This document shows positions 13,758-30,421 of a stretch of 64,000 nucleotides of DNA, piece after piece (the first letter of the stretch is position 1; every line of letters begins with the position of its first letter). The stretch lies in sequence record PQ850623.1; one strand, written 5' to 3'. Origin of the DNA: Escherichia phage RudolfBernhard_Bas96. A program made the position numbers and the translations under genes. Below the pieces are notes generated by a model. That model worked only from the letters and a program-made list of their open reading frames with translations, did not search any database and was not told the DNA's origin.

Positions 13758-13820
13758 TTAACTGGCTTACTGTAGAGTAAGTTACCTATATACGATATAA
13801 GTTTGAACAGGAAACATGCT

Positions 13821-16800
13821 ATGTCAACATTTGACCGTCTGGCAGGTTTCGCAGACAGCATCACTAATGCTAAGCAAGTCGATGTCTCTACTGCAACCTC
13901 TCAGAAGCAAGCTGCACAAGGGCAAAGCCCTTTCCAATTAACCCCAGAGAATGCTTACAATCTCCAGACCGGACGAGTAGGTAATCTTGGAATCGGTGCA
14001 TTCGAACCAGGTTCACTTCAGGCAGATTTCACTCAAGCCTCCCCATTAGAAATCATTAATAAATACGGTAATGAGCAAGGTTTACAGATTCTTAATAGCC
14101 GAGCTAATGCTGCTGATGTTGTACGTCAGGACTTATCTAAACAACGTACTAACGCAGAAGCATTTGGCGATACTCTTTCTGGTGTTGGTCTTGGTGTTGC
14201 TAATACCCTTGGGGGCATTGCTGCTCTTGGTACAGGTCTGGTCAATGATAATGCCGGGGCATCCATTGCTTCCGGGATGGATTGGTTGAATGAAGGTGTA
14301 CACAATCTACAGTCTGATGCACTGAATGCTACCCGTAAAGTTGTTCAGAATCAGAACCAGATTTCTGCTCAAAAGAACCAGAAACTCTATGAACAAGACA
14401 TCAAAAATGGGGAGAGCGATTTGGTTGCCTCCTTGTCTCGCATTGGTCGTGACGCTTTCGATTCTGTTGCTAACACACTTGATAATGGTATGGCTGTTTC
14501 CGACGGACTGAGTGAAGGTGTTGGTTCTCTCTTTACTGGTGGTCCACTTATCCGTGGTGTATCTGCACTAGGTAAAGTAATGGTAGGGGGTGATAAAGCT
14601 GTTAAGGGTATTACCTTAGCTGCTGGGTTAGGTTCACGTCCTGCACAGGTTGCATTGTCTGCCGGTCGTGTTGCTGCACCTGCTATCGCAATCGGTGGTA
14701 TGGAAGCAGGTGGTGCATACCAACAGACTGCTTCTGAAATCATGAAGATGTCCCATCAAGAACTGGCAAGTAAGTCTCCTGTTTACCAACAACATATTGC
14801 CGATGGTTTATCTCCTGATGAAGCACGACGTCAGGCTGCATCTGAAACAGGTATTATTGCTGCTGGCTTAACTGCTCCAGTTGCTGCTGCTACCGGTCCA
14901 CTGGTATCTCGCTTTGAACTTAACCCACTTAAGGTAGGTTCACTGGCAGGTGCTGGTTCTAATATGCTGCGTGAAACTGTAGAGGAAGGTATTCAATCCG
15001 GCTTTGGTCAGTTCGCACAGAATACTGCAATCAAAGGAAACGTTGATGCATCCCGTGACACCCTCAAAGGGGTTGGTGAGCAGGCAGGTCTTGGTGCACT
15101 TTATGGGTTCGGTAGTGCTGGGGTTGCTCAGGCTCCTGGTGCAACTGTTAAAGCAGTTGGTGCTTCTGCTGGTCCTGCTCTTCGTACTACCCTGGCTGGT
15201 GCTTCTCTGGTTGGTAAAACATTAGCAAAAGCTGCCTCTCCTCTTACTAACATCCTGGTTCAACGTGGTGAAGAAGTTGCTAAGCGTAATGAACAAGCAT
15301 CCCCTGTAGCTGATGCTACGGTTAATGCTGCTGCACAGGAAGCTGCTGCTCAGGCAGAACAAGCACAAGCAACTGTACAGGAAGCAGTAGATGCAATGGA
15401 TATCACTCCAGAAGAGAAAGCTGCTGCTACCCAATACGCTGCTGATTTAACTCAGGCAATGAAGTTTGACCCAGTAGAATTGGAACAAGCTAACCCAGTA
15501 ATCCGTGAAGCTGTTTCTGGCTCTACTAACCGTGTAGAAGCTATTCAGAAGATGGCTGACCTGGTTAATACTGCTGAAGACCCTAACGTTCAAATGGAAG
15601 CTGCAATCCAGATGTATGACAACATCATGTCTATGGATAGCTTCATTAACCGTGACCCAGGTGCACTGGCTAATCTGGAACAAGGTTCTCCTGCTGCTGC
15701 AATCGTAGACCAGTTCTCTGGCTTGATGGCTAACGTACAGAATACCCCTAAAGTACTTCGCGCATTCCGTGCCATCCATTCCATGATTCAGGAACAGGCT
15801 GAAGCAGGTAAATTGAAAGCTACTGAAGAAGCCAATCAAGCCCAAGCAAACAATATTGCTATGGCTGCTGATGTGTCCCCAGAAGTGCTAGATGCAGATT
15901 CAGTGAACATGGTTCTGAAACATGCAAGTGAAGGTAAGATTACATTGGGGAATCGTCAACGTGCTGCCCTGCAATCTGCTGCTGCCTTGTTACAGGGTGC
16001 ACGAGAGTTCGACGCTAAAGCAGAAGAACTAGGCTTACGTCCTCAAGACATTGTTAGTAAACAGATTAAAACCGACGAGTCTCGTTCTAATGAAGGACAG
16101 TACTCTGCGTTGCAACATGCGAAACGCATTCGTTCTGCGTATAACTCTGGTAACTTCGATTTGGCCTCCGCTTATCTGAGCGACTTTATGAAGTTCGCCC
16201 AGCACATGCAGAATAAGGTCGGAGCGTTGAATGAGCATCTGATTTCGGGGAATGCGGATAAGAATAAGTCTGTTCATTATCAGGCTCTCTCGCCTTCCCG
16301 TGAATGGGTACGTAGTCGTACTGGCCTCGGTGTCAATCCGTATGATACCAAATCTGTTAAGTTTGCCCAGCAAGTAGGACTGGAGGCCAAAACCGTAGCT
16401 GATATTGCTAATGCACTTGCTACGGCTTACCCGGAGCTTAATGTTTCTCATGTGAAGGTTACCCCATTGGATTCACGTCTGGACAAGCCTGCTGCCCAGG
16501 TAGTTAAAGAGTTCCGTCAAGGTGGTCTTGATGCCACTCAGTCTCAACAGACTAATGAACCAGTGAATCAGGTTGATGAAACTCCTGCACCAGTGCAAGA
16601 GGACACTACTACTGTACAGCCTAAAGCTAAACCAGTGGTAGAAAATAAGACTGCTCCTACTAAGGAGACTAGTCCAAAAACAGAAGAAGTCTCTACTACT
16701 AAGCCTGAAACAGTAGATGCTACCCTTACTAATGAGGATACCATCGAGCAACCTACTGAATCGGAAAGAGATGCTTATGTGAAAGAGAATACTATTTCAC

Positions 16801-19800
16801 AAGATACTCTTAATAAGTATGGTGACCGTAGAGAGAGTCCATGGCTCTTTGCTGATGGTACTGTTGTTGGTTCTAACGGTGACCATATCAGTCTGTCTGA
16901 TGTATTTGGTCATGATGGTTATCGTGATATGTCCTTGGATACTGGTGCTATTCGCTCTACTTTCTATAAAGGTAGTGAGCAACCATTTGTATCTCTGCAA
17001 TTGTTTGATAATCAGAAGTTGACTGCTGAACAATTCAATACTGTTCAATCTTTCGTTGAAGCCAATAATGCACAGATTCTGGTTGGTGTAGATACCTCTG
17101 GTCGTAACACTAACAACGTGGAGAAAGATGAGGTATCACTGGCTCAGCTAAAAGCAGGTTATACTGTTGGTGGTAAACCTCTGTCTGAAATGGAAACAGT
17201 GTTCCCTGTCTATAACAATGAAAAGACACCGAACCAGTTCCTGAAAGCATTCTCTCTGCCGGAAGAACCTAAGTCTCGTACCATTGGTTCCGAATCCCCT
17301 TTAGCTGATATTAAGCAAGCACTCTCTTCTGCTGCTCGCTTTGAAGCATTTACTCAAAAAGAAAATAACGCTCTCACAGGTGATGTGTTAAAACGCTATC
17401 AAGACTTGATGGACTTTGGGGAAACTCTGAAGACTACTTTGTCTGAACGACTGGCTAAGTTCCTTGCTAACAAAAATGTTGGTAAACGTTTTGCAGAAGG
17501 TACTGAAGCTAACCGTTGGGTAGGTGGTAAGTTACTTAACATCGTAGAGAAAGATGGAGATACCTTTAAGTTTAATGATCAGTTGTTAGAGACTGCTGTA
17601 CTTGCTGGTCTGCAATGGCGACTAACTGCTACACAGAATGCTGCCATTAAAGATATGAAAGACGTAGCTGCTATTACTGGTGTAGAAGCATCTCTGTTAC
17701 CAGAAGGCATTCTGGCTGAGTTCGAGAATGCCCAGACTTTAGTAGAAGCTACTAGCTCACTGGCTCAGAAGATTGAATCCTACTGGGGTTTGAATCGTAA
17801 CCCTAATGCACCACTGGGTTATACCAAGGGTATTCCAGTGGCAATGGCTACAGAGATTTTGTCTTCCCTCATTGAGATGGGTGCAGTTACTGAGACTATG
17901 CTGGATGTGTCTGAGATTGACCCAGACTCTAATAAGACTGTTGGTCTGTACACTATTAATAAGTTGGCTGATAAAGACCCTATTAATAATTTCCCTACAG
18001 CAATTGAAGAAGCTGTTTTGGTAAACCCGGAAGAGAAAATGTACTTTGGTGATGACATTCCTTCCGTGGCTCAAACTCAGTTACGTAACCCTGCTGTTAA
18101 GAACACCCCTGAACAGAAAGCTGCACTGAAAGCCGAACAGGCTACCGAGTTCCGTGTACACATGCCGATGGTTAACTTCTATGAAGCTTTAGGCCGTGAC
18201 AACATTCTGGAACTAATGGGTGCTGGTACTCTTAATCCTGATTTGCTGAATAAGAACAATGCTAAATCACTGGAAGGTAAGAACTTATCAGTATCTATGG
18301 CATATGATTCCTTGTTTGGTTTAATTAATCAGCTAAAAGAACAAGAGAATGGTTTGGATACCCCTATTCACTATGGCTATAACATGACCCGAGTAGGTCG
18401 TATGCAGATGCTTGGTAAGAACAACCCACAATCCAGTAAGCTGGTTCGTGAAGCAATTCTGCCAACCTTCTCTACTATTGACTTGAGTAATGAAAACAGC
18501 CAAGCGTTCTCTGACTTCCAGTTAGGACTGGCTCAGGCATTAGGCATCAAGGTACACAAAATGTCCCGTGAAGCTATGGCCGAAGAGTTGACTAAAGCTC
18601 TGGAAGGTAAACTGAAACCTGCTGTTGATATGATGGTTGAGTTCGATAAGTCTGGTTACTTACCTACAGATGCAGTAGATATTCTGAAGACCTCTCTGGG
18701 TGATAACAAATCCTTCGTAGCTCTCATGGCTCTGATGGAATATGCCCGTTACCTGAACAGTGATGACCGTGCCAACTTTACTACTCCCCTGTACGTTGAA
18801 GCTGATGGTGTAACCAACGGCCCAATCAACGCAATGGTATTAATGACTGGTGGTAAGTTCACTTCGGACTGGATTAAGAATACTGCCAAAGGTGGTTTGT
18901 TCTTCGGTCGTGCTGGTAAAACGATGAACGAACATTGTTCTATTGACGATAATGTTGACCTGTATGAAGCATCTACTAATGGTCTGCAATTTTATCTAAA
19001 TGAGTTACGTACTACTTACCGTAACAATATTCCGGTTATGAGCCAGATGAATCATCTCCAGAAGTTAATGGATTTGTTCATTAAAGATTTTAACCTGAAT
19101 GAAGACGGTACTCTGGACCTGAAACGTGGCATCGCTAAAAACCCCCTGACCATTACCATCTACGGTTCTGGTGCTCGTGGTATTGCTGGCAAGATGGTTA
19201 GTGCAATCACTGACACCATCTACGAACGCCTCAGTGACGTTCTACAAGCACGGGCTGCTGACCCTAGCATTTCCCCAGCTATGGCAATGTTTGGTAAGGA
19301 GGCTGCGTCTGAGGCAGATGCTCAGGCTATGCTGAATACCTTCCTTACTTCTATGGAAGCACTGACCGGTAAGATTCCAGCTAAGCGTAAAGGTAAGTTA
19401 TTTATTAAGGAAGTAGATGGTGCTCTGACTGGTGAGCTAGATCCCCAGGAGTTTACTGTATCTGGTGATGCCCTTAAGAACTTACAAGAGAATATGTTGC
19501 ACTTCTTCGTTGAACCAATGAGACAAAGTATCCGGTTCACCGTTGGTGAAGGTCTGATGCACTCCACTGAGAACTTACAGAAGGCTACCCAGATTCAGTC
19601 TCTGGTATTGCAGGATATGTTCCAACAAGCAGTACAAGCTAAGCTGGCAGAAAAAGAAAAAGACCCATCCTGGAAGAAGGGTGATTTCTTAACACAGAAA
19701 GAACTGAATGAAATTCAGAAATCATTGTCTCCACTGGCTCCAATGATTGAGACTGGTTCACAGACTTTCTACATTGCAGGAAGTGAGAATACTGATGTTG

Positions 19801-22800
19801 CTAACCAAGTACTGGCTACCAACTTAGATGACCGTATGCGTGTGCCAATGAGCATCTATGCTCCTTCACAGGCAGGCGTTGCAGGTATTCCATTTATGAC
19901 CATTGGTACTGGTGATGGCATGATGATGCAGACCCTTTCTACTATGAAAGGTGCTCCGAAGAATACCCTGAAAATCTTTGATGGTATGAACATTGGTATC
20001 AATGACATCACTGATGCAAGCCGTAAAGCTAATGAGGCTGTATATACTTCCTGGCAGGGCAACCCTATTAAGAACGTGTATGACTCCTTCTCTAAGTTCA
20101 TGAAGAACGTAGACTTTAATAAGTTGTCAGATAAGACAATTGATGACATTGCCCGTTCTGCTTTAGATTTTGAACAGCTTTCTCATATCAGTCGTGTTGA
20201 GGGAGACAGGCAGTATAAGATTGATATGATTAAGAATTCCGGTGTTAACCTTATTGAACGTAACTTGCGTAACATTGCTCTGGGTGTAGATATTCGTCAC
20301 AAAGTAATGAACCAAGTACAGACCACTGTTGACCAGATGGCTGCTGTGGGTGCTCCTTATGTGAACAACGGTAAAATCTCTCTGGAAGGTCTGACTGTAG
20401 ACCAGCAAGTAGCTAAGCTGAACGAACTGTTCGATGCTGAATTAAACAAGCGTCGTGATGCAGTACGTGCTGCTAAAGCAGAACCAGTGAAAGAAGTACC
20501 AGTTATGGAACAAGTTGGTCGTGTACTTAAGTCTGGTGTACGTCTGTTATCTAATACTGCTATCACTAAGCTGGGTAAAGAGATGACCCCTGAACAACAA
20601 GCAGTATTGAAAGAAGTACAGAAATCCCTTGCTGCTAAAGACTACAAGGTTGTTTACGGTACTCCTGCTCAACTGGATGCTTACGCTATTGAGAAGAATA
20701 TTACTCGTCCTGCACCGGAAGATATTGAAGCTGCTGAAGCTGGTAATGCGTATGGCTGGACTAACTTTGATGATAAGACCATCTACTTAGTTACCCCTTC
20801 TTTAGAGACTCTGGTTCACGAACTGGTACATGCTTCTACTTTTGAATCTGTACTGGCTCACTATGAGGGTACTCCTAATGAAGCAGTCCAGAATATTGAA
20901 GACCTGATGAACCAGTTCCGTACTCTGGATGTTAAGAACGAATCCCCGGCAGTACGTGAAGCATATGCTGATGCACTCAATACCATTAATGGTCACTTGT
21001 CTAATGGCTTCATTGAACCAGCAATGGCTAAAGCTGCTGCACTGAATGAGTACATGGCATGGGGCTTAACCAACCGTGAACTGATTGGTAAGCAGAAGAA
21101 GACTACTGCACTGAAGACTATGGTTCAGTCTGTATATGAAGCAATTAAGCGTCTGGTATTTGGGCGTAAGAAAGCACCTGCTAATGCAGATGATATGTTC
21201 TCTGGCTTACTGTTTAACTCTTCAGTAGTTATGCGTGGACAGGCTCCTACGGCTGCTGTATCCAAGGACACTACCTTGTTTCATAACAAGGCATACGGTG
21301 ACAATACCCGTCTGGAAGAGTTGGGACAGACTTTTGATAAACTGATTACTAACTACATTGGTTCTGAACCAGTACAGCAAGTAATTCGTAAAGGTAAGTT
21401 CTCTGATGCAGTAGTGAATGCAACTAAAGTAACTCGTGATGTTCAGGCTCACGGCTTTACCATGAATATGCAGGAACAGCGACTGTTTACTAATATCGTT
21501 GCTGCTTTGGCTACTGAAGCTGCTATTAGCCCGGCTGCTCTTTCTCGTGCACAGGAATATTACGCACACGTCACCAAGAACCTGACCGTTGAAGCATTCA
21601 TGGCTGACCCGGATAGTACTAACCCTGCTGACCGTTATTATGCTCAGCAGAAGTTCGATACTATCATGGGGGCTAACAACATTGAGTTTGATGCACAGGG
21701 TCATTCTTCCTTACTGCCTACCTTTGTTGGTCTGGCAATGGTAAGTGAAGAGGTGCGTAACGTACTGGCTAACATTCCTGTTATGAAAGCAGATAAGAAA
21801 TCTGGTAATACCATTGATGCAATGCTGACTAACATCGGTACTGCTGCAATGTCTAGTCTGAATGCTCGTGTAGCTGGTGATACCAAAGCTACCAACGTAC
21901 AGGAAGGTATGGATGCACTGGCTCAGACAATCATGCAGACTAGCTTAAATGCACAGTCATTCTATGATTCCGTTGCTACACCTAGTGGTAATGCTATTGA
22001 CCGTGCTAATCAGTATCTGGTGGATTCTATTGATGTACTGTCTACTCGTGCTTTAGAAAGTGCCCGTGAAGTTGCAGCTAATACCAAGAATCCATTGGTT
22101 AAGGGTGCTGCTCATGCTGCACAACTGGTAGCTGCCATTGCTACAGAGAAGAATGGTGCAATCGTAGCCGAAGGTGTTATGGCTGCAATGAACCAGGGCA
22201 AGGTATGGCAACCTTTCCACGACTTGGTTAATGACTTAACCGGTCGTACTAAGAGTAATGCTTCTGTGTATGATTTGATTAAAGCAGTTCGTGCACAGGT
22301 ACAAGCAGACCGTCAGCAGTTCCGTGAACATCTGCCTACCACTATTGCATCTAAGTTCAGCCGTAAGCTGACTAATGATGAGTGGAAAGCAATGTACACT
22401 GGTATGGGTAAAACTGACTTAGCTGTTCTGCGTGACACCATGTCTCTGGCTGAAATCCGTGACCTACTGTCTGACCAAAAGATCGTTGACCGTGAAGTGA
22501 ATAAGCTGGAAGCAGATTTGCAGAAGCAAGCTGGTCGTAACTGGCCTCTTATTAGCCGTAAATCTAAGCAACTGGCTCAGTACATGATTAACGGTACAGT
22601 CGGCAATAACCTGCTGCGTAATGCTACTGCAATCTCTCGTATGCTGGGTGAACGTCAGGCTGCTCGCTCTACTGTAGATGTAGCTCAACTGGATAAACTG
22701 ATTACCCTGTATGCACTGGAAGCAATGAATAAGTCTGACCGTGAGATGTTATCTTCACTGGCTCAGGCAGAAGTTGATGGAATGGACTTTGCTACTTCTT

Positions 22801-24620
22801 ACCTGGTTGGTCAGCGTAAAGATGAAATGGCTAAAGCCAAGTCTGATATGCGTGCAACCCTGAACCAGTACAAAGGGCATATCCCTAGTGAGACTAAACA
22901 GAGTGTTAATCTGATTGTTGCTGAAGATAGTCAGTTTGCTGATTTGATTGAGAAGTCCTATGTACGTCTGGGTACTTATCAAGGTAGCTCTGCTAATCGT
23001 GGTCCGGCACGTAGTTACTACTTTGCACCAGTACAGGCACAGGCTCCTTTCTCACAGGGTATCCTACAGAACGTTCGTAATACTGCTGGTGGTGTAGACC
23101 TCGGCACAGGCTTTACGATGGGTTCGATGGTAGCTGGTCGTATTACTGACAAGCCTTCCGTAGACCGTATTACTAAAGCACTGGCTCGTGGTGAACGTGG
23201 TAATGAACCACTGCTGCCTGTGTATGATGACAAAGGTAATGTAGTTGCTTATGAGCAATCTATTGACCCCAACATGCTGAAGCACATTGAAGGTGAAAAC
23301 CACCTTGCCCGTGCAATTGGTGTATGGCGTGGTCGTCAGGTGGAAGAAGCTAAGGCTCAGCGTTTCAACGATATGCTGATTGAGAACCTGCATAGCATGT
23401 ATGAGAATGACATTAAGATGTCTGCCTCTAACAAGTCCCAGTATGTGAACCTTCTTGGTTCTAAACTGGATCCAGTAACTGCTGATGCTCTTAAGCTAAT
23501 GAACAGTGAAACCCGTCAGAAAGCAGAAAGTCTGTTTGGTGAGGGTGAACTGTGGGTACGTCGTGACATGCTGAATGATGCACTTGGTTATCGTGCAGCT
23601 TCTGTTGGTGATGCCTGGTCTGGTAATTCTCGTTGGTCCCCGGAAACTCTGGATACTTTCAAGAAAGCTATGCTGGGTGTATTTGGCAACCGTGCTTATA
23701 AGTACACAATGGGTGGAGAGAACCTGGTTCAAAACTTAGTTAAAGAAGCCAAGACTCTGATTGTAGTTAAGTCAGTAGTCGTACCTGCTGTTAACTTCTT
23801 GGCTAACCTTTACCAGATGGTTGCTCGTGGTGTACCGGTTAAGAACATTGCTAAGAGCATTCCACAGAAGACTGCTGAGATTAACCAGTACCTTAAATCT
23901 CGTCTGCGTCAGGTAGATGCAGAAGCAGAATTACGTGCAGCTACTAACCCGAACCAGATTCGTAAACTTAAGGCTGAGATTCAGTCCATTACTGATAGTC
24001 ATAAGCGTATGAGTATCTGGCCTCTGTTAGAAGCCGGTGAGTTCTCTTCTATTGCAGATGCTGGCATCGGTCGTGATGACATCCTGATTACTGAGGGCAA
24101 ACTTCATGAATACATGGAAAAACTGGCTGATAAGTTACCTAAGTCTGTACGTACTGCCGGACGCTATGCACTTATCACTAAAGATACTGCTCTGTTCCAG
24201 GGTATCCAGAAGACAGTTGAGTACTCTGACTTTATCGCTAAAGCAATCATCTATGATGAACTGACTCAGCGTAAAGGTAAGACTCGTGAAGAAGCACTTG
24301 GACGTGTAACGGAAGAGTTTGTTAACTATGACCGTCTGCCGGGTCGCTTCCGTGGGTATATGGAAAGTGTTGGTTTAATGTGGTTCTACAACTTTAAGAT
24401 TCGTTCAGCTAAGGTTGCAGTGTCCATGATTCGTAATAACCCGGTACACGCAGCAATGGCTATGTTGGCTCCAACCCCTACCATGTTTGGTAACGTTGGT
24501 CTGCCTATTCAAGACAACATCTTTAGCATTGCTGCTAAAGGTAGTCTGGATTACTCATGGGGCTTTGGTCAGGGGCTTCGTGCACACAACCTGAACCCTT
24601 GGATGAACCTGGTAAACTAA
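13821..24620 (+). CDS. Virion-encapsidated RNA polymerase (vRNAP, N4 gp50-like)
   Basis: Single 3599-aa ORF (track begins at TTG 13803; ATG 13821 follows AGGAAA RBS); central region has a T7-like motif B (KRGIAKNPLTITIYGSGARG); size is diagnostic of N4-like phages. Confidence 0.85.
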   Translation: MSTFDRLAGFADSITNAKQVDVSTATSQKQAAQGQSPFQLTPENAYNLQTGRVGNLGIGAFEPGSLQADFTQASPLEIINKYGNEQGLQILNSRANAADVVRQDLSKQRTNAEAFGDTLSGVGLGVANTLGGIAALGTGLVNDNAGASIASGMDWLNEGVHNLQSDALNATRKVVQNQNQISAQKNQKLYEQDIKNGESDLVASLSRIGRDAFDSVANTLDNGMAVSDGLSEGVGSLFTGGPLIRGVSALGKVMVGGDKAVKGITLAAGLGSRPAQVALSAGRVAAPAIAIGGMEAGGAYQQTASEIMKMSHQELASKSPVYQQHIADGLSPDEARRQAASETGIIAAGLTAPVAAATGPLVSRFELNPLKVGSLAGAGSNMLRETVEEGIQSGFGQFAQNTAIKGNVDASRDTLKGVGEQAGLGALYGFGSAGVAQAPGATVKAVGASAGPALRTTLAGASLVGKTLAKAASPLTNILVQRGEEVAKRNEQASPVADATVNAAAQEAAAQAEQAQATVQEAVDAMDITPEEKAAATQYAADLTQAMKFDPVELEQANPVIREAVSGSTNRVEAIQKMADLVNTAEDPNVQMEAAIQMYDNIMSMDSFINRDPGALANLEQGSPAAAIVDQFSGLMANVQNTPKVLRAFRAIHSMIQEQAEAGKLKATEEANQAQANNIAMAADVSPEVLDADSVNMVLKHASEGKITLGNRQRAALQSAAALLQGAREFDAKAEELGLRPQDIVSKQIKTDESRSNEGQYSALQHAKRIRSAYNSGNFDLASAYLSDFMKFAQHMQNKVGALNEHLISGNADKNKSVHYQALSPSREWVRSRTGLGVNPYDTKSVKFAQQVGLEAKTVADIANALATAYPELNVSHVKVTPLDSRLDKPAAQVVKEFRQGGLDATQSQQTNEPVNQVDETPAPVQEDTTTVQPKAKPVVENKTAPTKETSPKTEEVSTTKPETVDATLTNEDTIEQPTESERDAYVKENTISQDTLNKYGDRRESPWLFADGTVVGSNGDHISLSDVFGHDGYRDMSLDTGAIRSTFYKGSEQPFVSLQLFDNQKLTAEQFNTVQSFVEANNAQILVGVDTSGRNTNNVEKDEVSLAQLKAGYTVGGKPLSEMETVFPVYNNEKTPNQFLKAFSLPEEPKSRTIGSESPLADIKQALSSAARFEAFTQKENNALTGDVLKRYQDLMDFGETLKTTLSERLAKFLANKNVGKRFAEGTEANRWVGGKLLNIVEKDGDTFKFNDQLLETAVLAGLQWRLTATQNAAIKDMKDVAAITGVEASLLPEGILAEFENAQTLVEATSSLAQKIESYWGLNRNPNAPLGYTKGIPVAMATEILSSLIEMGAVTETMLDVSEIDPDSNKTVGLYTINKLADKDPINNFPTAIEEAVLVNPEEKMYFGDDIPSVAQTQLRNPAVKNTPEQKAALKAEQATEFRVHMPMVNFYEALGRDNILELMGAGTLNPDLLNKNNAKSLEGKNLSVSMAYDSLFGLINQLKEQENGLDTPIHYGYNMTRVGRMQMLGKNNPQSSKLVREAILPTFSTIDLSNENSQAFSDFQLGLAQALGIKVHKMSREAMAEELTKALEGKLKPAVDMMVEFDKSGYLPTDAVDILKTSLGDNKSFVALMALMEYARYLNSDDRANFTTPLYVEADGVTNGPINAMVLMTGGKFTSDWIKNTAKGGLFFGRAGKTMNEHCSIDDNVDLYEASTNGLQFYLNELRTTYRNNIPVMSQMNHLQKLMDLFIKDFNLNEDGTLDLKRGIAKNPLTITIYGSGARGIAGKMVSAITDTIYERLSDVLQARAADPSISPAMAMFGKEAASEADAQAMLNTFLTSMEALTGKIPAKRKGKLFIKEVDGALTGELDPQEFTVSGDALKNLQENMLHFFVEPMRQSIRFTVGEGLMHSTENLQKATQIQSLVLQDMFQQAVQAKLAEKEKDPSWKKGDFLTQKELNEIQKSLSPLAPMIETGSQTFYIAGSENTDVANQVLATNLDDRMRVPMSIYAPSQAGVAGIPFMTIGTGDGMMMQTLSTMKGAPKNTLKIFDGMNIGINDITDASRKANEAVYTSWQGNPIKNVYDSFSKFMKNVDFNKLSDKTIDDIARSALDFEQLSHISRVEGDRQYKIDMIKNSGVNLIERNLRNIALGVDIRHKVMNQVQTTVDQMAAVGAPYVNNGKISLEGLTVDQQVAKLNELFDAELNKRRDAVRAAKAEPVKEVPVMEQVGRVLKSGVRLLSNTAITKLGKEMTPEQQAVLKEVQKSLAAKDYKVVYGTPAQLDAYAIEKNITRPAPEDIEAAEAGNAYGWTNFDDKTIYLVTPSLETLVHELVHASTFESVLAHYEGTPNEAVQNIEDLMNQFRTLDVKNESPAVREAYADALNTINGHLSNGFIEPAMAKAAALNEYMAWGLTNRELIGKQKKTTALKTMVQSVYEAIKRLVFGRKKAPANADDMFSGLLFNSSVVMRGQAPTAAVSKDTTLFHNKAYGDNTRLEELGQTFDKLITNYIGSEPVQQVIRKGKFSDAVVNATKVTRDVQAHGFTMNMQEQRLFTNIVAALATEAAISPAALSRAQEYYAHVTKNLTVEAFMADPDSTNPADRYYAQQKFDTIMGANNIEFDAQGHSSLLPTFVGLAMVSEEVRNVLANIPVMKADKKSGNTIDAMLTNIGTAAMSSLNARVAGDTKATNVQEGMDALAQTIMQTSLNAQSFYDSVATPSGNAIDRANQYLVDSIDVLSTRALESAREVAANTKNPLVKGAAHAAQLVAAIATEKNGAIVAEGVMAAMNQGKVWQPFHDLVNDLTGRTKSNASVYDLIKAVRAQVQADRQQFREHLPTTIASKFSRKLTNDEWKAMYTGMGKTDLAVLRDTMSLAEIRDLLSDQKIVDREVNKLEADLQKQAGRNWPLISRKSKQLAQYMINGTVGNNLLRNATAISRMLGERQAARSTVDVAQLDKLITLYALEAMNKSDREMLSSLAQAEVDGMDFATSYLVGQRKDEMAKAKSDMRATLNQYKGHIPSETKQSVNLIVAEDSQFADLIEKSYVRLGTYQGSSANRGPARSYYFAPVQAQAPFSQGILQNVRNTAGGVDLGTGFTMGSMVAGRITDKPSVDRITKALARGERGNEPLLPVYDDKGNVVAYEQSIDPNMLKHIEGENHLARAIGVWRGRQVEEAKAQRFNDMLIENLHSMYENDIKMSASNKSQYVNLLGSKLDPVTADALKLMNSETRQKAESLFGEGELWVRRDMLNDALGYRAASVGDAWSGNSRWSPETLDTFKKAMLGVFGNRAYKYTMGGENLVQNLVKEAKTLIVVKSVVVPAVNFLANLYQMVARGVPVKNIAKSIPQKTAEINQYLKSRLRQVDAEAELRAATNPNQIRKLKAEIQSITDSHKRMSIWPLLEAGEFSSIADAGIGRDDILITEGKLHEYMEKLADKLPKSVRTAGRYALITKDTALFQGIQKTVEYSDFIAKAIIYDELTQRKGKTREEALGRVTEEFVNYDRLPGRFRGYMESVGLMWFYNFKIRSAKVAVSMIRNNPVHAAMAMLAPTPTMFGNVGLPIQDNIFSIAAKGSLDYSWGFGQGLRAHNLNPWMNLVN

Positions 24621-24622
24621 AT

Positions 24623-24657
24623 TAAAAAAGCCCCTCAAATGAGGGGCTTCTATTTTA
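24623..24657. terminator. Bidirectional terminator between convergent late (+) and early/middle (-) units
   Basis: Stem AAGCCCCTC/GAGGGGCTT with AAAT loop, A-run on the left and T-rich run on the right. Confidence 0.7.
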
Positions 24658-24948
24658 CTTCTTAACTACAAGAATTTTTCGATCAGTTTTGATTACATAA
24701 TCAATATTGTTGGCTTCAAAATGAATATCTACAAAATCAGCGTGTACACTTTGATAAGTACCATTGTTTCTACGAATACCTAACTTCTTACAGAGAACCA
24801 TTGCAATTCCTGTATCTGGTACAGCAATCCAATTGTTACCATCAATTTGTACATCACAACCAAAGGTTAAACGATGCCTTGCCTTACGGTGTACATGCAA
24901 TCCACCAATACGCTTTGGTATAAGCTGCCCTTTCTTAAAGAGTTCCAT
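24655..24948 (-). CDS. Hypothetical protein
   Basis: 97-aa ORF, last gene of the leftward unit. Confidence 0.4.
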   Translation of the reverse strand: MELFKKGQLIPKRIGGLHVHRKARHRLTFGCDVQIDGNNWIAVPDTGIAMVLCKKLGIRRNNGTYQSVHADFVDIHFEANNIDYVIKTDRKILVVKK

Positions 24949-24956
24949 ATAGTTTC

Positions 24957-25484
24957 CTATAGAATTATCCAGTCATCTGCTAATACATCCGATTGGGATG
25001 GAACCCAAGGCATAAACTGGTCATCAGCAGTTTTGATGCCTAACCATGGGCGAGGCTTCAGTTCATCAGCAAATCTTGGACGTTCTAGACTACTGCTGTT
25101 CCATTCTTCAGCAGCAACGTACTCAATGTACATTCCCTTACCGTTCCAGCCTTTACGGGCTAGTTTGAAGCCTGCCTTAAGAATCTCTATGGCATGACCA
25201 AACGTGCAGCCTTTGTCCACATCGTGGTATGCAGCTTCAAATGCAGCCCTCGGTGACCAGCTAATATAACCACGGAATTGCTCATGGTTAGGTTTAGAAT
25301 CCGGGTATTCTACTAAGTAACCTACTTCTAATGGATCTTCATTAGCAGGCACATCCCATCCACGAAGTTTGCAATATGTTTCCTTGTTCATCCGGAATCC
25401 ATTTACACACTTGGTTCCAATGTAGTTGGTGAAGTGAACTTTAATTTCTTCTGACGTAACTACCTCAAATGATAAAGCCCTCAC
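24957..25484 (-). CDS. gp49-like N-terminal region fused to DUF2829 (Tad2-like) domain
   Basis: 175 aa with GTG start; C-terminal half has ARKGWNGKGMYIEY and PWVPSQSDVLADDW, the two DUF2829 signature blocks as I recall them; N-terminal half resembles the neighbouring 126-aa protein. Confidence 0.55.
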   Translation of the reverse strand: MRALSFEVVTSEEIKVHFTNYIGTKCVNGFRMNKETYCKLRGWDVPANEDPLEVGYLVEYPDSKPNHEQFRGYISWSPRAAFEAAYHDVDKGCTFGHAIEILKAGFKLARKGWNGKGMYIEYVAAEEWNSSSLERPRFADELKPRPWLGIKTADDQFMPWVPSQSDVLADDWIIL

Positions 25485-25575
25485 TAGGAGGGCTTATTTT
25501 GTTTTGGCTTCGTGAGCCTTACCACATGTCGGGTAGTTCAGTACCTTTCGGTAAAAACTACCTTACACTTGTTTA

Positions 25576-25956
25576 TTAAATGGTGCAACCACCACCATCA
25601 CAGGTATTGTTTTCTGCAAAGGAAGCCAGAGCCTTAGCAGTCTCCTCTTTCTCATGCAGTGCCTGACGTAGCAGGTAACCCTCTATTTCCCAAATCTTAT
25701 CGAATGCATTTTCATATGCATACTGACGGCCTTTCTGCTCATCATAGATGGCCGGGTCAACACAGGCAGATTCGCCTGTAACTTTGAAGCCGTTTTCCAG
25801 GATGATAACACAGTAGGTTGTCAGGCCCAGGTTAGCCAAATCGTCTGCCGGAAGTGCAGAAGGGTTAACGAAGGCAGACTTTACTGCATCAGCACCGTTG
25901 AAATAGTAGACGCTCTTAATCTTAGCTTCGATTGATTCTTTACTTACTGTTGCCAT
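25576..25956 (-). CDS. gp49-like family protein (hypothetical)
   Basis: 126 aa; shares motifs with the N-terminal half of 24957-25484 (CV..NGF...E..C); C-terminal CDGGGC. Confidence 0.4.
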   Translation of the reverse strand: MATVSKESIEAKIKSVYYFNGADAVKSAFVNPSALPADDLANLGLTTYCVIILENGFKVTGESACVDPAIYDEQKGRQYAYENAFDKIWEIEGYLLRQALHEKEETAKALASFAENNTCDGGGCTI

Positions 25957-26098
25957 TATTAGCCTCGTAGAGTGGTTTGAGTTTGTATTTAAACATGACT
26001 GCGTTGTTATAGGCTACGCTACCTGCAAACACCAAAGACTTACGTCCTCGGTTATCCGTTACCTCATAGGCATACGGGGTTAAAATTAGGTCAATCAT
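25940..26098 (-). CDS. Small hypothetical protein
   Basis: ORF track 25940-26125 starts at TTG; internal ATG at 26098; weak RBS. Confidence 0.25.
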   Translation of the reverse strand: MIDLILTPYAYEVTDNRGRKSLVFAGSVAYNNAVMFKYKLKPLYEANNGNSK

Positions 26099-26123
26099 AT
26101 AAATCGTCCAATGAGTAGTTCTC

Positions 26124-26161
26124 AAATAAAAAAGTCCCCCAGAGTGACGGCTCTGAGGGAC
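26124..26161 (-). terminator. Rho-independent terminator downstream of the tRNA-like cluster
   Basis: 11-bp stem GTCCCCCAGAG/CTCTGAGGGAC (one mismatch) followed on the - strand by TTTTTTATTT. Confidence 0.6.
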
Positions 26162-26410
26162 TTAGTACTATTTACCCATAGCTGGGAGGCTTGTATGAAC
26201 TTTATGAGTACCAGGTTCAGGTACGCTTAACTGGTGTGCTACTTGGATTGATAGTCCACTCATATCGCTCAGGCTAGGATTTAAGGAGTTCCTATTCTCC
26301 AGCGAAATTCCCGTCGAGGGGAATAACAATACATTAGCAGCCACTGGACTGTCTTACCAGTGTTGTCTTTAGAGTGCTATGCAATCAGGACTATGTTACT
26401 GCTGAATGGG

Positions 26411-26495
26411 TGTCCACTACTGGATTTGAACCAGTGACCCCAGACACCTTGTTCTCTCGAAGCTTTCCTGTGCTCTACCACTGAGCTAAGTGGAC
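26411..26495 (-). tRNA. tRNA-like gene, about 85 nt, isotype unassigned
   Basis: Minus strand reads acceptor GTCCACT/AGTGGAC, canonical D-arm GCTC-AGTGGTA-GAGC and T-arm ACTGG-TTCAAAT-CCAGT; the 35 nt between them did not fold into a standard anticodon arm by eye. Confidence 0.45.
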
Positions 26496-26994
26496 ATAAT
26501 AGAATGAGCTGGGGCAGGATACCTACCCCATCCAACCAAGTTACTCTGTATCTGAAGAACTATATTAAGTAGTTCATTTTACAGCAATAAGTAATTAGCT
26601 ACTGCTTAACCAGGATGATTAGACGTGCTCATATTGGGTGAGTCATGCCAGGCTCTAACTGGCTCCTTCTTCGCAATCCTTACATACCCCTACATAATTA
26701 TTGCGTTAAGCTTTTTTGTTTAAGTTTAAGTGAAGGCGTTCTTGCTGACTCATAATTGGGTGGGCGTTTGACGAATGACTAGTTCGTTACTACCCGTTTG
26801 CCATAAGTACCTGGCGACTATGGTTTGAGATGGGAGTCCGAGTCCTGTACAGCCTTACCGTCTCCACATTGGCAGCGTATCTAGAATAGCACTTCCGGGT
26901 ACGGATTTAACTGTTACATCTCAAATATGGTAGGGGCGTCCAGAGGTTTCATCTGGTACTTACGCCGTCGTATTTACGACTTACCCCCATTGTT

Positions 26995-27075
26995 TGGTTG
27001 CAGGTGGAGGAGTTGAACCTCACTTCACATACAGATTGGGAAACCTGTAGCATAACCGTATGCTCACCCACAATA
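26995..27075 (-). tRNA. tRNA-like element (3' half convincing, 5' boundary uncertain)
   Basis: Minus strand ends ...GAGG-TTCAACT-CCTCC-ACCTGCA-A-CCA (T-arm, acceptor 3' strand, discriminator, encoded CCA); no complementary 5' acceptor found at the expected distance. Confidence 0.3.
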
Positions 27076-27200
27076 ATTCTTCCAATTCAGAGTAGCACTG
27101 TTGCAGTCGTCACTGCCCATAGGTGAGGACTCGAACCTCACAATACCGTATGGCTAACGTCGCTGAACCTTTTCGCGTTCTATGCAGTGCTACTTTGAAT

Positions 27201-27285
27201 TGGTTACCAGTGAAGGATTCGAACCTCCGGTTGGAGTCTATAGCTTACCGCAGCAGCCCTCCAATCTAGCGGTGTCACACTTAGT
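27201..27285 (-). tRNA. tRNA-like element (3' half convincing, 5' boundary uncertain)
   Basis: Minus strand ends GGAGG-TTCGAAT-CCTTC-ACTGGTA-A-CCA; the only perfect 5' acceptor complement (TACCAGT) lies 124 nt upstream. Confidence 0.3.
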
Positions 27286-27326
27286 CCAAACTTGAACATG
27301 CCAAGCCATCTCGTGCAACTGGTAAT

Positions 27327-27405
27327 TGGTTCCGGCGTCTGGACTCGAACCAGAACACTCATGCCGGGCACGACACTAGTACCTACACCGGAATAGTTGC
27401 CAGGG
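27327..27405 (-). tRNA. tRNA-like element (3' half convincing, 5' boundary uncertain)
   Basis: Minus strand ends TCTGG-TTCGAGT-CCAGA-CGCCGGA-A-CCA; nearest acceptor complement (TCCGGTG) gives only 66 nt. Confidence 0.3.
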
Positions 27406-28210
27406 ATTCCACCTGGCTCTATCTGTTTTTATAGTCACTCAGATATTGTCTGGACTTTGACCATCTGGGGATTCGAACCCTCATCTCGGTGGCCAACCGT
27501 GCATTTGCCTCATGCTACTCTGGTCATAGTTGGCCCCCGTTTCTAATACATGGACGGGGGAACTCCACGGTCGTTTGATAATCAGGACGACTCACTCCTG
27601 ACTGAGGTTACGCTGTTAGGCGACCATCAGATACGCTTCTTCGTTTGCATTTATGTTATTGGTTCGTTTCTAAAAAACCGCATAATCGCTACGAAAACTA
27701 TCGGAGAGTGTACTAACTCTGGGCCACGCTTTTGTGGACATCGGCCTACCTTCCACAGCTAATCAGCTAATACACTCACCGATAGCCCGTAATAGGGGGG
27801 AGGGGACGAATCCTCCCTTTATACCCTATATTGCATGTAAGACCTAACAATTCGATGTTGTAGACGGATAGGCTTATGCTTACCGGCATTAAACTCCCGC
27901 CCCCTTAGTGGGCTGGGTTAATTAGTATACTCAACATTGAGCAGTTAGTTTGATAAGGGATCTGAAGCCTTATCCCAAAGATACCAACCTTTGGGATATA
28001 GCCTAAGATTCAGAAATGGCCCCTATAGGAGAGGCCATTGATTAACCCGAATGTTGCTTTACATTTTCTGTGATAACCGGTTCTTAAAATAGTCTGTCTG
28101 ACGGATGGGGGGCCACCCCTAGCGTCAGTGCCATACGGCAAAGATTAAGTTAAGAAAGGTTATGATAGGAGTTCCTATCTCAAAGGATTCTGACAGAACC
28201 CTTCACGATA

Positions 28211-28477
28211 TTAACTACTCTTTTTCAATGCTTCAACTTCGCCATCTTTATACCAAGCATATGGTATTAAGATTTTGCAGCCTTCTGAATCAATGTGGAA
28301 TGCTTTGTTTACTTCAGCAGGTTCTCCACCCATGAAAGAACTAACCTTTCCATTGAGCCAGTGAATAGTAAATTTGTTCATATTAACCCCGGTTGAACCA
28401 ATGGACTGGGGAGAGTATTCCAATCCACTGGTTCGGTTGTTGTTATTCTGGCGGCTTGTCACCACCGTGTTTACCAC
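28211..28477 (-). CDS. Hypothetical protein
   Basis: 88-aa ORF, first gene left of the noncoding region. Confidence 0.4.
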   Translation of the reverse strand: MVNTVVTSRQNNNNRTSGLEYSPQSIGSTGVNMNKFTIHWLNGKVSSFMGGEPAEVNKAFHIDSEGCKILIPYAWYKDGEVEALKKSS

Positions 28478-28612
28478 TGCATTTCCACAGGATAATGACA
28501 GTGATGATAAAAGCTATGTATGGAGCCGACACGTCTATAATCCTGACCAGTAGTAGCATCAGGACTATAAACACTACCACACCTAGCAGCAGCTTCTGAG
28601 CCACCTACCAGA

Positions 28613-29062
28613 TTAACTACGTTTTAGGCCAGCGAACAGTGAAGGCTTCGCAGCAGGTTTCTCTGCTGGTTCTTCAGCCTTAACTTCTTCCTGCACAACT
28701 TCTTCTTGTGCTTCTGGTTCAGCTACTGCTTCTTCAGGTTCCGGCGTAGAACTCTCGTTCGGTCCACCAGTAGAGGTCTGGATTTCTTCTTCCTTTGCCT
28801 CTTCTTCTGCTTCATCCTCAACAACCGGTTCTGGTTCTACCGGACGGTGTTTGGCTTCTTGTGGGTTCTTACGAGGACGGCGAGTCTTCTTCTCTACCAC
28901 GGGGGGGGTGTCATCACTATGACCGACCTCTTCATTGATACCAATGGTGGCAGTACCGTCTGCATTCACCAGGATATTAATGTCCCCGGCAAGATTAACT
29001 TGTTCATTTACATAAGCTTCAATAGCAGCTTCTACTTCAGACTGGTTCAGAACGATTTGCAT
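28613..29062 (-). CDS. Highly acidic protein (Glu/Pro-rich C-terminal half)
   Basis: 149 aa; C-terminal 90 residues dominated by E, P, A, V (EPEPVVEDEAEEEAKEEE...). Confidence 0.5.
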   Translation of the reverse strand: MQIVLNQSEVEAAIEAYVNEQVNLAGDINILVNADGTATIGINEEVGHSDDTPPVVEKKTRRPRKNPQEAKHRPVEPEPVVEDEAEEEAKEEEIQTSTGGPNESSTPEPEEAVAEPEAQEEVVQEEVKAEEPAEKPAAKPSLFAGLKRS

Positions 29063-29063
29063 A

Positions 29064-29618
29064 TTATGCCTTTATTAATTTAATGAGATTCTGGAAAGCT
29101 GGTAGATTTACCCCAGCGTGGATTGCACCGATTGCATCAGCTAAGTGCTCATTCTTATTCAGAAGTTTACCTTTCTTATCCGTGAGCCAGTTGGCTTCAG
29201 GATAGATGGCATGAGCAGCACGAATCATCGTGTCTTTGGATGCTGTTTTATCACCGACCAGTGCAAGTTTGTTTTCAATTGGGGATACTTCAAAGATTGG
29301 ACAATCCAATGCACGGAATGCACCGATTAGTCCTACGCATACACCATAGGACTTCATTCCGTTAGCAGACTGAGAGCCTACTGGTACTTCTACGAATACT
29401 GCTTTAGCAGACCGTAACCATTCCTCACAACCAAGAAACAAATCATGGGCAGCTTGTATATCTTTGGAGTTGGTTCGAACTTGTTTGTTATGGTCAACTT
29501 CAGTTTGAACCAGTTTAAGTTCGACCTGCTCGAAGACACCGGACTCAATGTCCAGCATCCCACGAGCTAATCCCCAATTGCGGAGGCTAATGTCTGCACC
29601 GACAATTGGGATTTTCAT
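29064..29618 (-). CDS. RuvC-like Holliday-junction resolvase (putative)
   Basis: 184 aa; N-terminal IPIVGADISLRNWGLA and C-terminal EHLADAIGAIHAG resemble RuvC catalytic Asp/His motifs. Confidence 0.45.
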   Translation of the reverse strand: MKIPIVGADISLRNWGLARGMLDIESGVFEQVELKLVQTEVDHNKQVRTNSKDIQAAHDLFLGCEEWLRSAKAVFVEVPVGSQSANGMKSYGVCVGLIGAFRALDCPIFEVSPIENKLALVGDKTASKDTMIRAAHAIYPEANWLTDKKGKLLNKNEHLADAIGAIHAGVNLPAFQNLIKLIKA

Positions 29619-30421
29619 TAACGCTTACCGAACAGAGATTTACCACCAGCAGGAGTAGTACCTGTGCCAGCACCTGCACCAGGTTTAGGAGGCAAGCCAC
29701 CTTTACCGTTACCACCAGTAGAACCCTTGGTCTTATCACGGGTTTTACCTTTGTTCTTTTCCAGCCATGCTGCATAGAATACAGCCAGTTCTGGAGTCAG
29801 TTCTTTCTCAGCCTTCTCTGCTTCCTGAGCCTCGACGACTGTGACCAGCAGTTCCGGGTGAAACACTTTCTGAATCTCGTTTACTTCTCGAGTTTCACCG
29901 GAGTCAACGTAACCGTTGTCACCTTTAACCTGCTTAGCTTCCAGAACCTTTTCCAGAGCGAAGGTAACAGTCTGACCAACCAGATCAACTGGAACCATGA
30001 CAGACTTGTTGGTTTCTGCTTTCAGATCGAAGTCATAGACTTTAACAATCTTCTCTTCGAAGTCTGCATCTGGCAGTTCACAACCAGTAGCCATAAGCAT
30101 CATGTCATTAATGACAGTGTAACCAGGCAGGAAGTATTCTTTACCATTCTTCTCGTAAGTCGGCTTATTGCCTTTAGCATTACCAGAAGTAAAGTACACC
30201 TGAGCACGGAACTCACCAGCATCATTGCCGTCAGAACCTTTCAGGTTTTCGATGATTAACTGCATCCAGTCTGCACCAGAGTCAGCTTTACCTACGTAAG
30301 CTACTTTTACAGTACCGGTGTAGATATCGGATTCTTTAGCACCGAAGCCACCCCCACCAAGAGTGTCTTTTGCAGCTTCAACGTTTTTGGTCTTTTCTTT
30401 CAAGTTACCGAACAGTGACAT
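29618..30421 (-). CDS. Single-stranded DNA-binding protein candidate (N4 gp45-like size and position)
   Basis: 267 aa (N4 SSB is about 265 aa); Gly-rich flexible C-terminal tail; assignment by size and position only. Confidence 0.3.
   Translation of the reverse strand: MSLFGNLKEKTKNVEAAKDTLGGGGFGAKESDIYTGTVKVAYVGKADSGADWMQLIIENLKGSDGNDAGEFRAQVYFTSGNAKGNKPTYEKNGKEYFLPGYTVINDMMLMATGCELPDADFEEKIVKVYDFDLKAETNKSVMVPVDLVGQTVTFALEKVLEAKQVKGDNGYVDSGETREVNEIQKVFHPELLVTVVEAQEAEKAEKELTPELAVFYAAWLEKNKGKTRDKTKGSTGGNGKGGLPPKPGAGAGTGTTPAGGKSLFGKR

Follow-up and report, generated by a model that had tools for sequence, protein, structure and literature searches.

An N4 gp49-type protein of Escherichia phage RudolfBernhard_Bas96 probably joins a Tad2-like sponge domain to a sponge-associated N-terminal module

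An open reading frame (ORF) of 175 codons at 24957..25484 (- strand) of a 64,000-nucleotide stretch of Escherichia phage RudolfBernhard_Bas96 (PQ850623.1; the whole stretch is referred to below as the window) raises the question of what a protein with a Tad2-like C-terminal half and a second, N-terminal domain does, and whether it acts against Thoeris immunity. The window is identified by sequence as deriving from a Gamaleyavirus-like (N4-like, Schitoviridae) coliphage, the closest DNA relatives of positions 24600-26200 being Escherichia phages E20 (93.5 %) and F22 (92.3 %). The gene itself is placed by homology as the Gamaleyavirus orthologue of phage N4 gene 49, since N4 gp49 (ABK54417.1, EF056009 34003..34485) is 76 % identical to its product over the whole length, and its probable true coding sequence (CDS) is 24957..25457 (- strand; 166 codons plus a TAG stop, with ACG as first codon). 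The gene probably encodes a two-domain N4 gp49-type anti-defence protein, consisting of a Tad2 sponge and an N-terminal module and situated in an N4-like hotspot; statements about function draw on homology and on published work on other family members.

The Tad2-like (DUF2829, PF11195) sponge domain was located at 24963..25205 (- strand; residues 85-165 of the 166-aa protein; Pfam 2.6e-24). In the numbering of the 175-aa mechanical product, residues 94-174 matched PF11195 at E 3e-24 and 85.8 bits against a cut-off of 25, spanning profile positions 2-72 of 73. The same residues matched the solved structures of ModTad2 (9EIB; 2e-20, 46 % identity) and SPO1 Tad2 (8SME; 6.5e-14, 40 % identity), with both identities taken over 82 residues, and further matches were obtained to HgmTad2/AcrIIA7 (8KBI; 8.5e-12) and SptTad2 (1.2e-9). 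Matches of this order are far beyond chance and identify the domain as genuine. The original prediction, made from the letters of the window, had named two DUF2829 signature peptides in the C-terminal half; both ARKGWNGKGMYIEY and PWVPSQSDVLADDW are present in the translation, and the significant profile match agrees with that assignment.

The ligand pocket described for SPO1 Tad2 is largely retained. Eight of the ten residues that contact gcADPR or coordinate water there are identical here (SPO1 W25, N26, I63, T65, D67, W73, S76 and D79, corresponding to W113, N114, I150, T152, D154, W160, S163 and D166 in the 175-aa numbering), T78 is conservatively replaced by S165, and H71 is changed to M158. 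In HgmTad2, mutation of W21/N22 or of S90/T92/D93 abolishes gcADPR binding, and these essential positions are occupied by W/N and S/S/D in the window protein. The full-length AF2 model, calculated as a monomer, had a pLDDT of 88.8 and contained the elements H86-94, E99-101, E110-114, H116-119, H127-130, E138-142, E148-151, H155-159 and E163-165. Its C-terminal half thus runs helix, two strands, short helices, two strands, helix, strand, which is the order published for SPO1 Tad2, with its N-terminal helix, five-stranded antiparallel sheet and short helices in the beta2-beta3 and beta4-beta5 loops; the comparison covered the order of secondary-structure elements only. Domain match, identity, pocket residues and secondary-structure order, all of them forms of homology, support the earlier proposal of a Tad2-like anti-Thoeris candidate. 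Tad2 is known to sequester gcADPR (10.1101/2023.05.01.538930), one Tad2 clade binds His-ADPR (10.1101/2024.01.03.573942), and N7-cADPR, cUMP or cyclic dinucleotides are the ligands of further Tad2 proteins (10.1101/2025.08.24.671296; 10.1101/2023.11.15.567273).

The N-terminal half carries a second module (25218..25433, - strand; residues ~9-80 of the 166-aa protein), with the consensus YIGTK..A.PM.R.EYN.LRGW.hP..E....GYLVEY.D...N....GYISWSPK.VFE.AY, in which the residues K, R, W, E, E, N and W are near-invariant. Pfam gave no match for this half even at E<=10, and a word-index protein search with the N-domain alone returned 4 proteins only. Exhaustive HMMER comparison of residues 1-83 with 1.84 billion representative proteins recovered 1,098 clusters at E<=1e-3, with 449 at E<=1e-10. 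Mean pairwise identity among the N4-type proteins was 0.59 for the N-domain and 0.60 for the Tad2 core. The AF2 model of the N-domain (pLDDT 94) is a small beta-alpha-beta-beta-alpha unit; its YIGTK segment is a coil when the domain is modelled by itself and a strand in the full-length model. Among solved structures, a sequence-profile search was empty and the best Foldseek E-value was 1.3. A viral structure library yielded matches only to proteins with the same module, including a 'Thoeris anti-defense 2-like' protein, and a Yersinia phage TG1 'Ryanodine receptor Ryr domain' protein was matched with a Foldseek probability of 1.0.

A functionally characterized relative was found in gp68 of Pectobacterium phage vB_PatP_CB1 (CB1), named RyR Tad by Fedorova et al. 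(10.64898/2026.06.04.730250). The N-domain profile aligned with its residues 2-67 at an hhalign probability of 96.9 % (E 1.3e-10, 66 columns), and this match identifies the N-terminal half as homologous to the N-terminal domain of RyR Tad. That domain forms a beta1-swapped dimer in the crystal and is inactive alone against type I Thoeris, and the C-terminal RyR-like domain alone sponges gcADPR (10.64898/2026.06.04.730250). In the figure that also annotates Tad3, Fedorova et al. nonetheless describe the gp68 N-domain as a fold of unknown function; their labelling argues, only indirectly, against identity of the N-domain with Tad3.

To determine which domains accompany the module, the 148 best-matching library proteins together with the window protein (149 in all, the best 149 of the 1,098 clusters) were scanned against Pfam. 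The partner was PF21825 (crAss001_48, which is the 3'cADPR sponge Sequestin) in 50 proteins, a Tad2-like domain in 40, PF13876 (Acb4) in 18 and an Acb2/Tad1 hairpin in 5, with AP2 and HNH domains in one protein each; ~30 of the 149 had partner regions with no Pfam match. Individual cases add to this set: P0317 joins the N-domain to Lockin (51 % identity to LockinA, E 8e-24), P0311 joins it to Tad1 (E 2e-12), Achromobacter phage Axy13 gp069 combines N-domain, Acb4 and Sequestin, and CB1 gp68 pairs the N-domain with RyR. Tal et al. tabulate homologues of Sequestin and of Lockin, and entries in both tables carry the module motif N-terminally. Of the 149 proteins, 109 carried the module at the N-terminus, 25 internally and 8 at the C-terminus, and 7 consisted of it alone; Erwinia phage phiEaP8 has a 78-aa stand-alone module gene directly beside its vRNAP gene.

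All six recurrent partner families (Sequestin, Tad2, Acb4, Tad1/Acb2, Lockin and RyR Tad) are immune-signal sponges. No paper pointing out a general association between module and sponges was found in the literature searched; Pfam-based fusion screens are blind to the module because no Pfam model of it exists. The partner sponge families are reported to form dimers, tetramers or hexamers, and a dimeric add-on is compatible with all of these. We infer that the N-domain is a dimeric module with an accessory or second function, attachable to any even-numbered sponge oligomer. A more ambitious view, with a substantial chance that nevertheless falls well short of even, is that it acts against defence in its own right, as a new signal sponge or as an inhibitor that binds proteins, rather than serving as a passive dimerization handle. 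This view draws on the six partner families, the stand-alone occurrence and a level of conservation equal to that of the Tad2 ligand-binding core, and it follows the logic by which Sequestin was revealed, as a domain of unknown function repeatedly fused to known sponges. By extension, the partner regions without a Pfam match may hide further sponge families.

The upstream neighbour of the gene (25576..25956, - strand, 126 aa) matched Pfam Phage_gp49_66 (PF13876) at 5e-27, the profile of the Acb4 family of cyclic-nucleotide sponges (10.1101/2024.12.30.630793; 10.1101/2025.07.12.664507). It is assigned by homology as the orthologue of N4 gp48, which matches PF13876 at 8.8e-35, and as forming an anti-signalling gene pair with the Tad2 fusion. 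GenBank numbers the Tad2 fusion as gp49 and the PF13876 protein as gp48, and the Pfam name of PF13876, 'N4 Gp49/Sf6 gene 66', is at odds with this. The label 'gp49-like' given earlier to the fusion was therefore right only by accident.

By analogy with published Tad2 proteins, the C-terminal domain would be expected to form a homotetramer. In its inter-protomer pockets, TIR-made alarm molecules derived from ADP-ribose would be captured and kept from the Thoeris effector, which would then stay off. Candidate ligands are 3'cADPR (1''-3' gcADPR) and/or His-ADPR, possibly with others. The N-terminal ~70 residues would constitute a separate dimeric accessory module, one that in RyR Tad is dispensable for 3'cADPR sponging, and together with the upstream Acb4 sponge the gene pair would blunt both CBASS-type and Thoeris-type signalling.

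Several points weigh against this reading. Tad2 ligand specificity is not readable from sequence, and ModTad2, the nearest solved relative, binds His-ADPR and cUMP and spares type I Thoeris. Within the pocket, H71 of SPO1 Tad2 is M in the window protein. The beta2-beta3 insertion is poorly modelled (pLDDT ~59), so that the second (cyclic-nucleotide) pocket cannot be judged, and a monomer model does not bear on oligomeric state. No tested protein of the two-domain N4-type architecture was found in the literature searched. Entries 68-84 of the Tad2 homologue table of Hadary et al. contained no homologue with the N-domain, a motif search of the supplements of that study was likewise empty, and the one tested Tad2 homologue with a different N-terminal extension is given as inactive. 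Finally, the start codon is lost in the window, and the gene may be weakly expressed or silent.

The start codon was examined by comparison with relatives. The mechanical ORF opens at a GTG at 25484, and the original prediction had taken this as the start, buried in a hairpin at 25476-25494. A terminator-like hairpin is indeed present (AAGCCCTC-CTAGT-GAGGGCTT, 25475..25495; 8-bp stem, 5-nt loop, between the Acb4 and Tad2-fusion genes), and the PhAPEC5 record annotates a terminator at the same place. The GTG lies inside it without a Shine-Dalgarno-like sequence and is the opening of the mechanical ORF only. In the alignment, PhAPEC7, E20 and Moonfish have their annotated start 27 nt downstream of the GTG, at an ATG, and homologues of 160-167 aa have M at this column. 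The window has ACG at the position (25455..25457, - strand). A Shine-Dalgarno-like GAGG (25463..25466, - strand; read from the sequence) lies 5 nt upstream of the ACG/ATG codon and is invariant across the four aligned phages (window, PhAPEC7, E20 and Moonfish). In Escherichia phage vB_Eco_F22 the start of the orthologue (P0016, F22_0059, 209 aa) is called far upstream, through the structured spacer and terminator hairpin, which is probably a mis-annotation.

The ACG appears to be private to this record. A megablast query of 41 nt centred on the start codon, in which all 28-mer seeds include the C, gave no match in any of 50,697 phage records; the ATG version of the same query matched 28 records. 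No protein identical to the 175-aa product was found in the assembly collection. All columns conserved at >=90 % in 81 homologues are kept, with the exception of the initiator Met. In E. coli, codons of the class to which ACG belongs initiate with about 0.1-1 % of the efficiency of AUG (10.1101/063800), so that, if the change is real, RudolfBernhard_Bas96 probably produces far less of the protein than its relatives do.

These observations give some weight, short of an even chance, to the view that the gene is being silenced or lost, with the ATG->ACG change cutting expression ~100-fold or more by neutral decay or by selection. Selection is conceivable in hosts that sense sponges. Acb2 and N4 gp48, which is Acb4, trigger the sponge-sensing system Panoptes, gp48 being both necessary and sufficient (PMC12657230); Tad1 and Tad2 are also cited as Panoptes triggers by Fedorova et al. 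(10.64898/2026.06.04.730250); and naturally Panoptes-resistant T4-like phages have acb1 or acb2 loss-of-function mutations (PMC12657230; 10.64898/2026.06.04.730250). Against this, the Acb4 neighbour, whose N4 orthologue is the proven trigger, is intact with an ATG start, and a single-base sequencing or assembly error is possible. The otherwise intact frame and the retention of highly conserved residues further suggest that the change is recent, that it is tolerated with the protein still being made, or that it is a base-call error. The loss of the start codon could accordingly be neutral, an error, or a lowering of the cost of a sponge in sponge-sensing hosts.

An improbable alternative is that, in the N4 clade, the main targets of the Tad2-like domain are signals other than those of Thoeris, such as CBASS cyclic dinucleotides, the Pycsar nucleotides cUMP and cCMP or housekeeping c-di-GMP. 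A second pocket accommodates cGG/cGAMP in some Tad2 proteins (10.1101/2023.11.15.567273), MoTad2, the nearest solved relative, also binds cUMP/cCMP, and the beta2-beta3 insertion is equal in length to that of ModTad2. However, conservation within the domain is highest in the canonical gcADPR pocket and lowest in the poorly modelled insertion. HgmTad2 aligns in two separate stretches only, so that the residues of its cyclic-dinucleotide pocket cannot be mapped onto the window protein.

The origin of the N-terminal half had been explained earlier as a duplication of the adjacent PF13876 gene followed by fusion to DUF2829, with translation from the hairpin GTG. The resemblance that suggested this was not recovered. 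BLASTP between the two proteins gave a 21-residue match only (E 0.033), the failure of this half to match Pfam at E<=10 extends to Phage_gp49_66, and hhalign of an 82-sequence N-domain profile against a PF13876 profile trimmed to the neighbour's columns gave a probability of 0.5 % (E 0.11). An hhalign probability of 84 % between N-domain and PF13876 had also been obtained and was rejected; it was due to an N-domain-like extension of one member (P0222) and not to the PF13876 core. Both domain types are fused in other phages (phrog_9467, P0222 and Axy13 gp069), which could favour duplication, but each of the two window proteins aligns with its own part of the phrog_9467 profile, without overlap. 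The two sequences are not detectably homologous, the neighbour being an Acb4 orthologue and not a paralogue, and relatives start at the downstream ATG behind the GAGG rather than at the GTG. Duplication and fusion is thus highly implausible.

Still less credible is an AcrIIA7-type anti-CRISPR function: DUF2829 does include AcrIIA7 (E 4e-12 and 8.5e-12), GenBank labels of orthologues range over 'DUF2829 domain-containing', 'Thoeris anti-defense 2-like' and 'anti-CRISPR', and those in phages Mimir124 and 24-32N are annotated 'anti-CRISPR protein', but Li et al. failed to reproduce Cas9 inhibition by HgmTad2/AcrIIA7 or other Tad2 proteins in vitro or in vivo, and Yirmiya et al. argue for an anti-Thoeris role of DUF2829 proteins.

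The surrounding locus was compared with those of related phages. Four - strand ORFs converge on the vRNAP gene (13803..24620, + strand, 3,605 codons): the two of the sponge pair, a 61-aa ORF from the mechanical list (25940..26125) and a 97-aa ORF (24655..24948). The mechanical opening of the vRNAP ORF is a TTG, and an in-frame Met 5 codons downstream (MSTFDRLAG...) is the likelier start. The Tad2-fusion gene had been described as lying next to the vRNAP gene; the 97-aa ORF intervenes. This ORF matched phrog_29107, a family of unknown function, at 2e-47 and had no match in Pfam or PADLOC, and PADLOC matched none of the 4 small window proteins. Its slot holds a 294-nt CDS in E20 and no CDS in PhAPEC7 or N4, and differing small ORFs occupy the slot between the Tad2-fusion and vRNAP genes in E20, Moonfish and KP8, a pattern suggestive of variable cargo in the anti-defence hotspot. 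The order Acb4, N-domain plus Tad2, small ORFs and vRNAP is shared by N4, KP8, PhAPEC7, E20 and Moonfish, Klebsiella phage KP8 having the same locus layout. N4-like phages are said to carry an 'anti-signalling hotspot' that holds Tad2, Tad3, Acb4 and Sequestin (10.64898/2026.06.04.730250), and the sponge-gene pair beside the vRNAP gene is this published hotspot.

The region between the Acb4 and Tad2-fusion genes is structured (25458..25575, - strand), a 119-nt spacer with three hairpins including a GAAA-tetraloop and the terminator. It is almost invariant in four Gamaleyaviruses, whereas the flanking genes differ by 7-14 %. The predicted RNA fold of 25455-25580 had an energy of -39.1 kcal/mol (z = -4.6), and Rfam returned nothing credible for the intergenic region (best E 0.26). 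A further terminator-like hairpin, bidirectional and with a stem of 9-11 bp, was found at 24626..24651 between the convergent vRNAP gene and 97-aa ORF, and PhAPEC7 has terminators annotated at the equivalent place. Upstream lies an ORF-poor stretch of ~2 kb with two Rfam matches on the - strand, a tRNA at 26411-26495 (54 bits, 85 nt) and a weak tRNA-Sec-like match at 26998-27073 (31.7 bits, below threshold). ARAGORN found no tRNA in 24000-30000, and relatives annotate tRNA-Ile or 'tRNA-Xle' in this stretch.

N4 is a classic model phage with relatives used in phage therapy, and the pairing of gp48 and gp49 as Acb4 and Tad2 sponges would help to explain how N4-like phages cope with CBASS-type and Thoeris-type immunity. 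The N-terminal module is the more useful lead, in that its only recurrent Pfam-annotated partners are immune-signal sponges. Identification of its binding partner could reveal a further anti-defence function or account for the stabilization or regulation of sponges. If this reading of the module is true, the Pfam-unmatched partner regions would be a good place to look for additional sponge families. The private ATG->ACG change would in turn provide a natural low-expression allele with which the cost of a sponge could be tested, for example on exposure to Panoptes-like sensors.

Among known systems, the closest are N4 gp49 and its Gamaleyavirus and Kaypoctavirus orthologues, which have the same N-domain plus PF11195 architecture and lie downstream of an Acb4 gene and next to the vRNAP gene. 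Relative to N4 gp49, the window gene has an ACG start and is followed by the extra 97-aa ORF before the vRNAP gene; gp48 and gp49 overlap in N4, which has no spacer, whereas the structured spacer with its terminator-like hairpin separates the two genes in the window. The solved Tad2 sponges (9EIB, ModTad2 with His-ADPR and cUMP; 8SME-G, SPO1 Tad2 with gcADPR; 8KBI-M, HgmTad2/AcrIIA7 with gcADPR and cGG) have in common with the window protein the family, the GWNG and W-x-x-S-Q-S/T-D pocket motifs and the order of elements. They are single-domain proteins of ~90-100 aa, to which the window protein adds an N-terminal module of ~80 residues.

RyR Tad (CB1 gp68) has the same N-terminal module followed by a C-terminal gcADPR sponge, and its gene also lies in an N4-like-phage hotspot. 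Its sponge domain is RyR Repeat12-like and all-helical (PF02026), not Tad2, its N-domain is a divergent member without the RGW motif, and it is a dimer, whereas the window protein is expected, by analogy, to be a tetramer. Double-sponge fusions provide a further parallel, namely Acb4-Tad2 in Pasteurella phage Pm86 and Acb4-Sequestin in Pseudomonas phage Ab09 (gp59), which similarly place two small anti-signalling modules in one polypeptide within phage anti-defence loci. Both halves are proven sponges in these fusions, whereas in the window Acb4 is a separate, adjacent gene and the N-terminal half is without a known ligand. The Tad2 family itself and its occurrence in the N4-like hotspot were already known; the sponge-associated module and the private loss of the start codon go beyond this.

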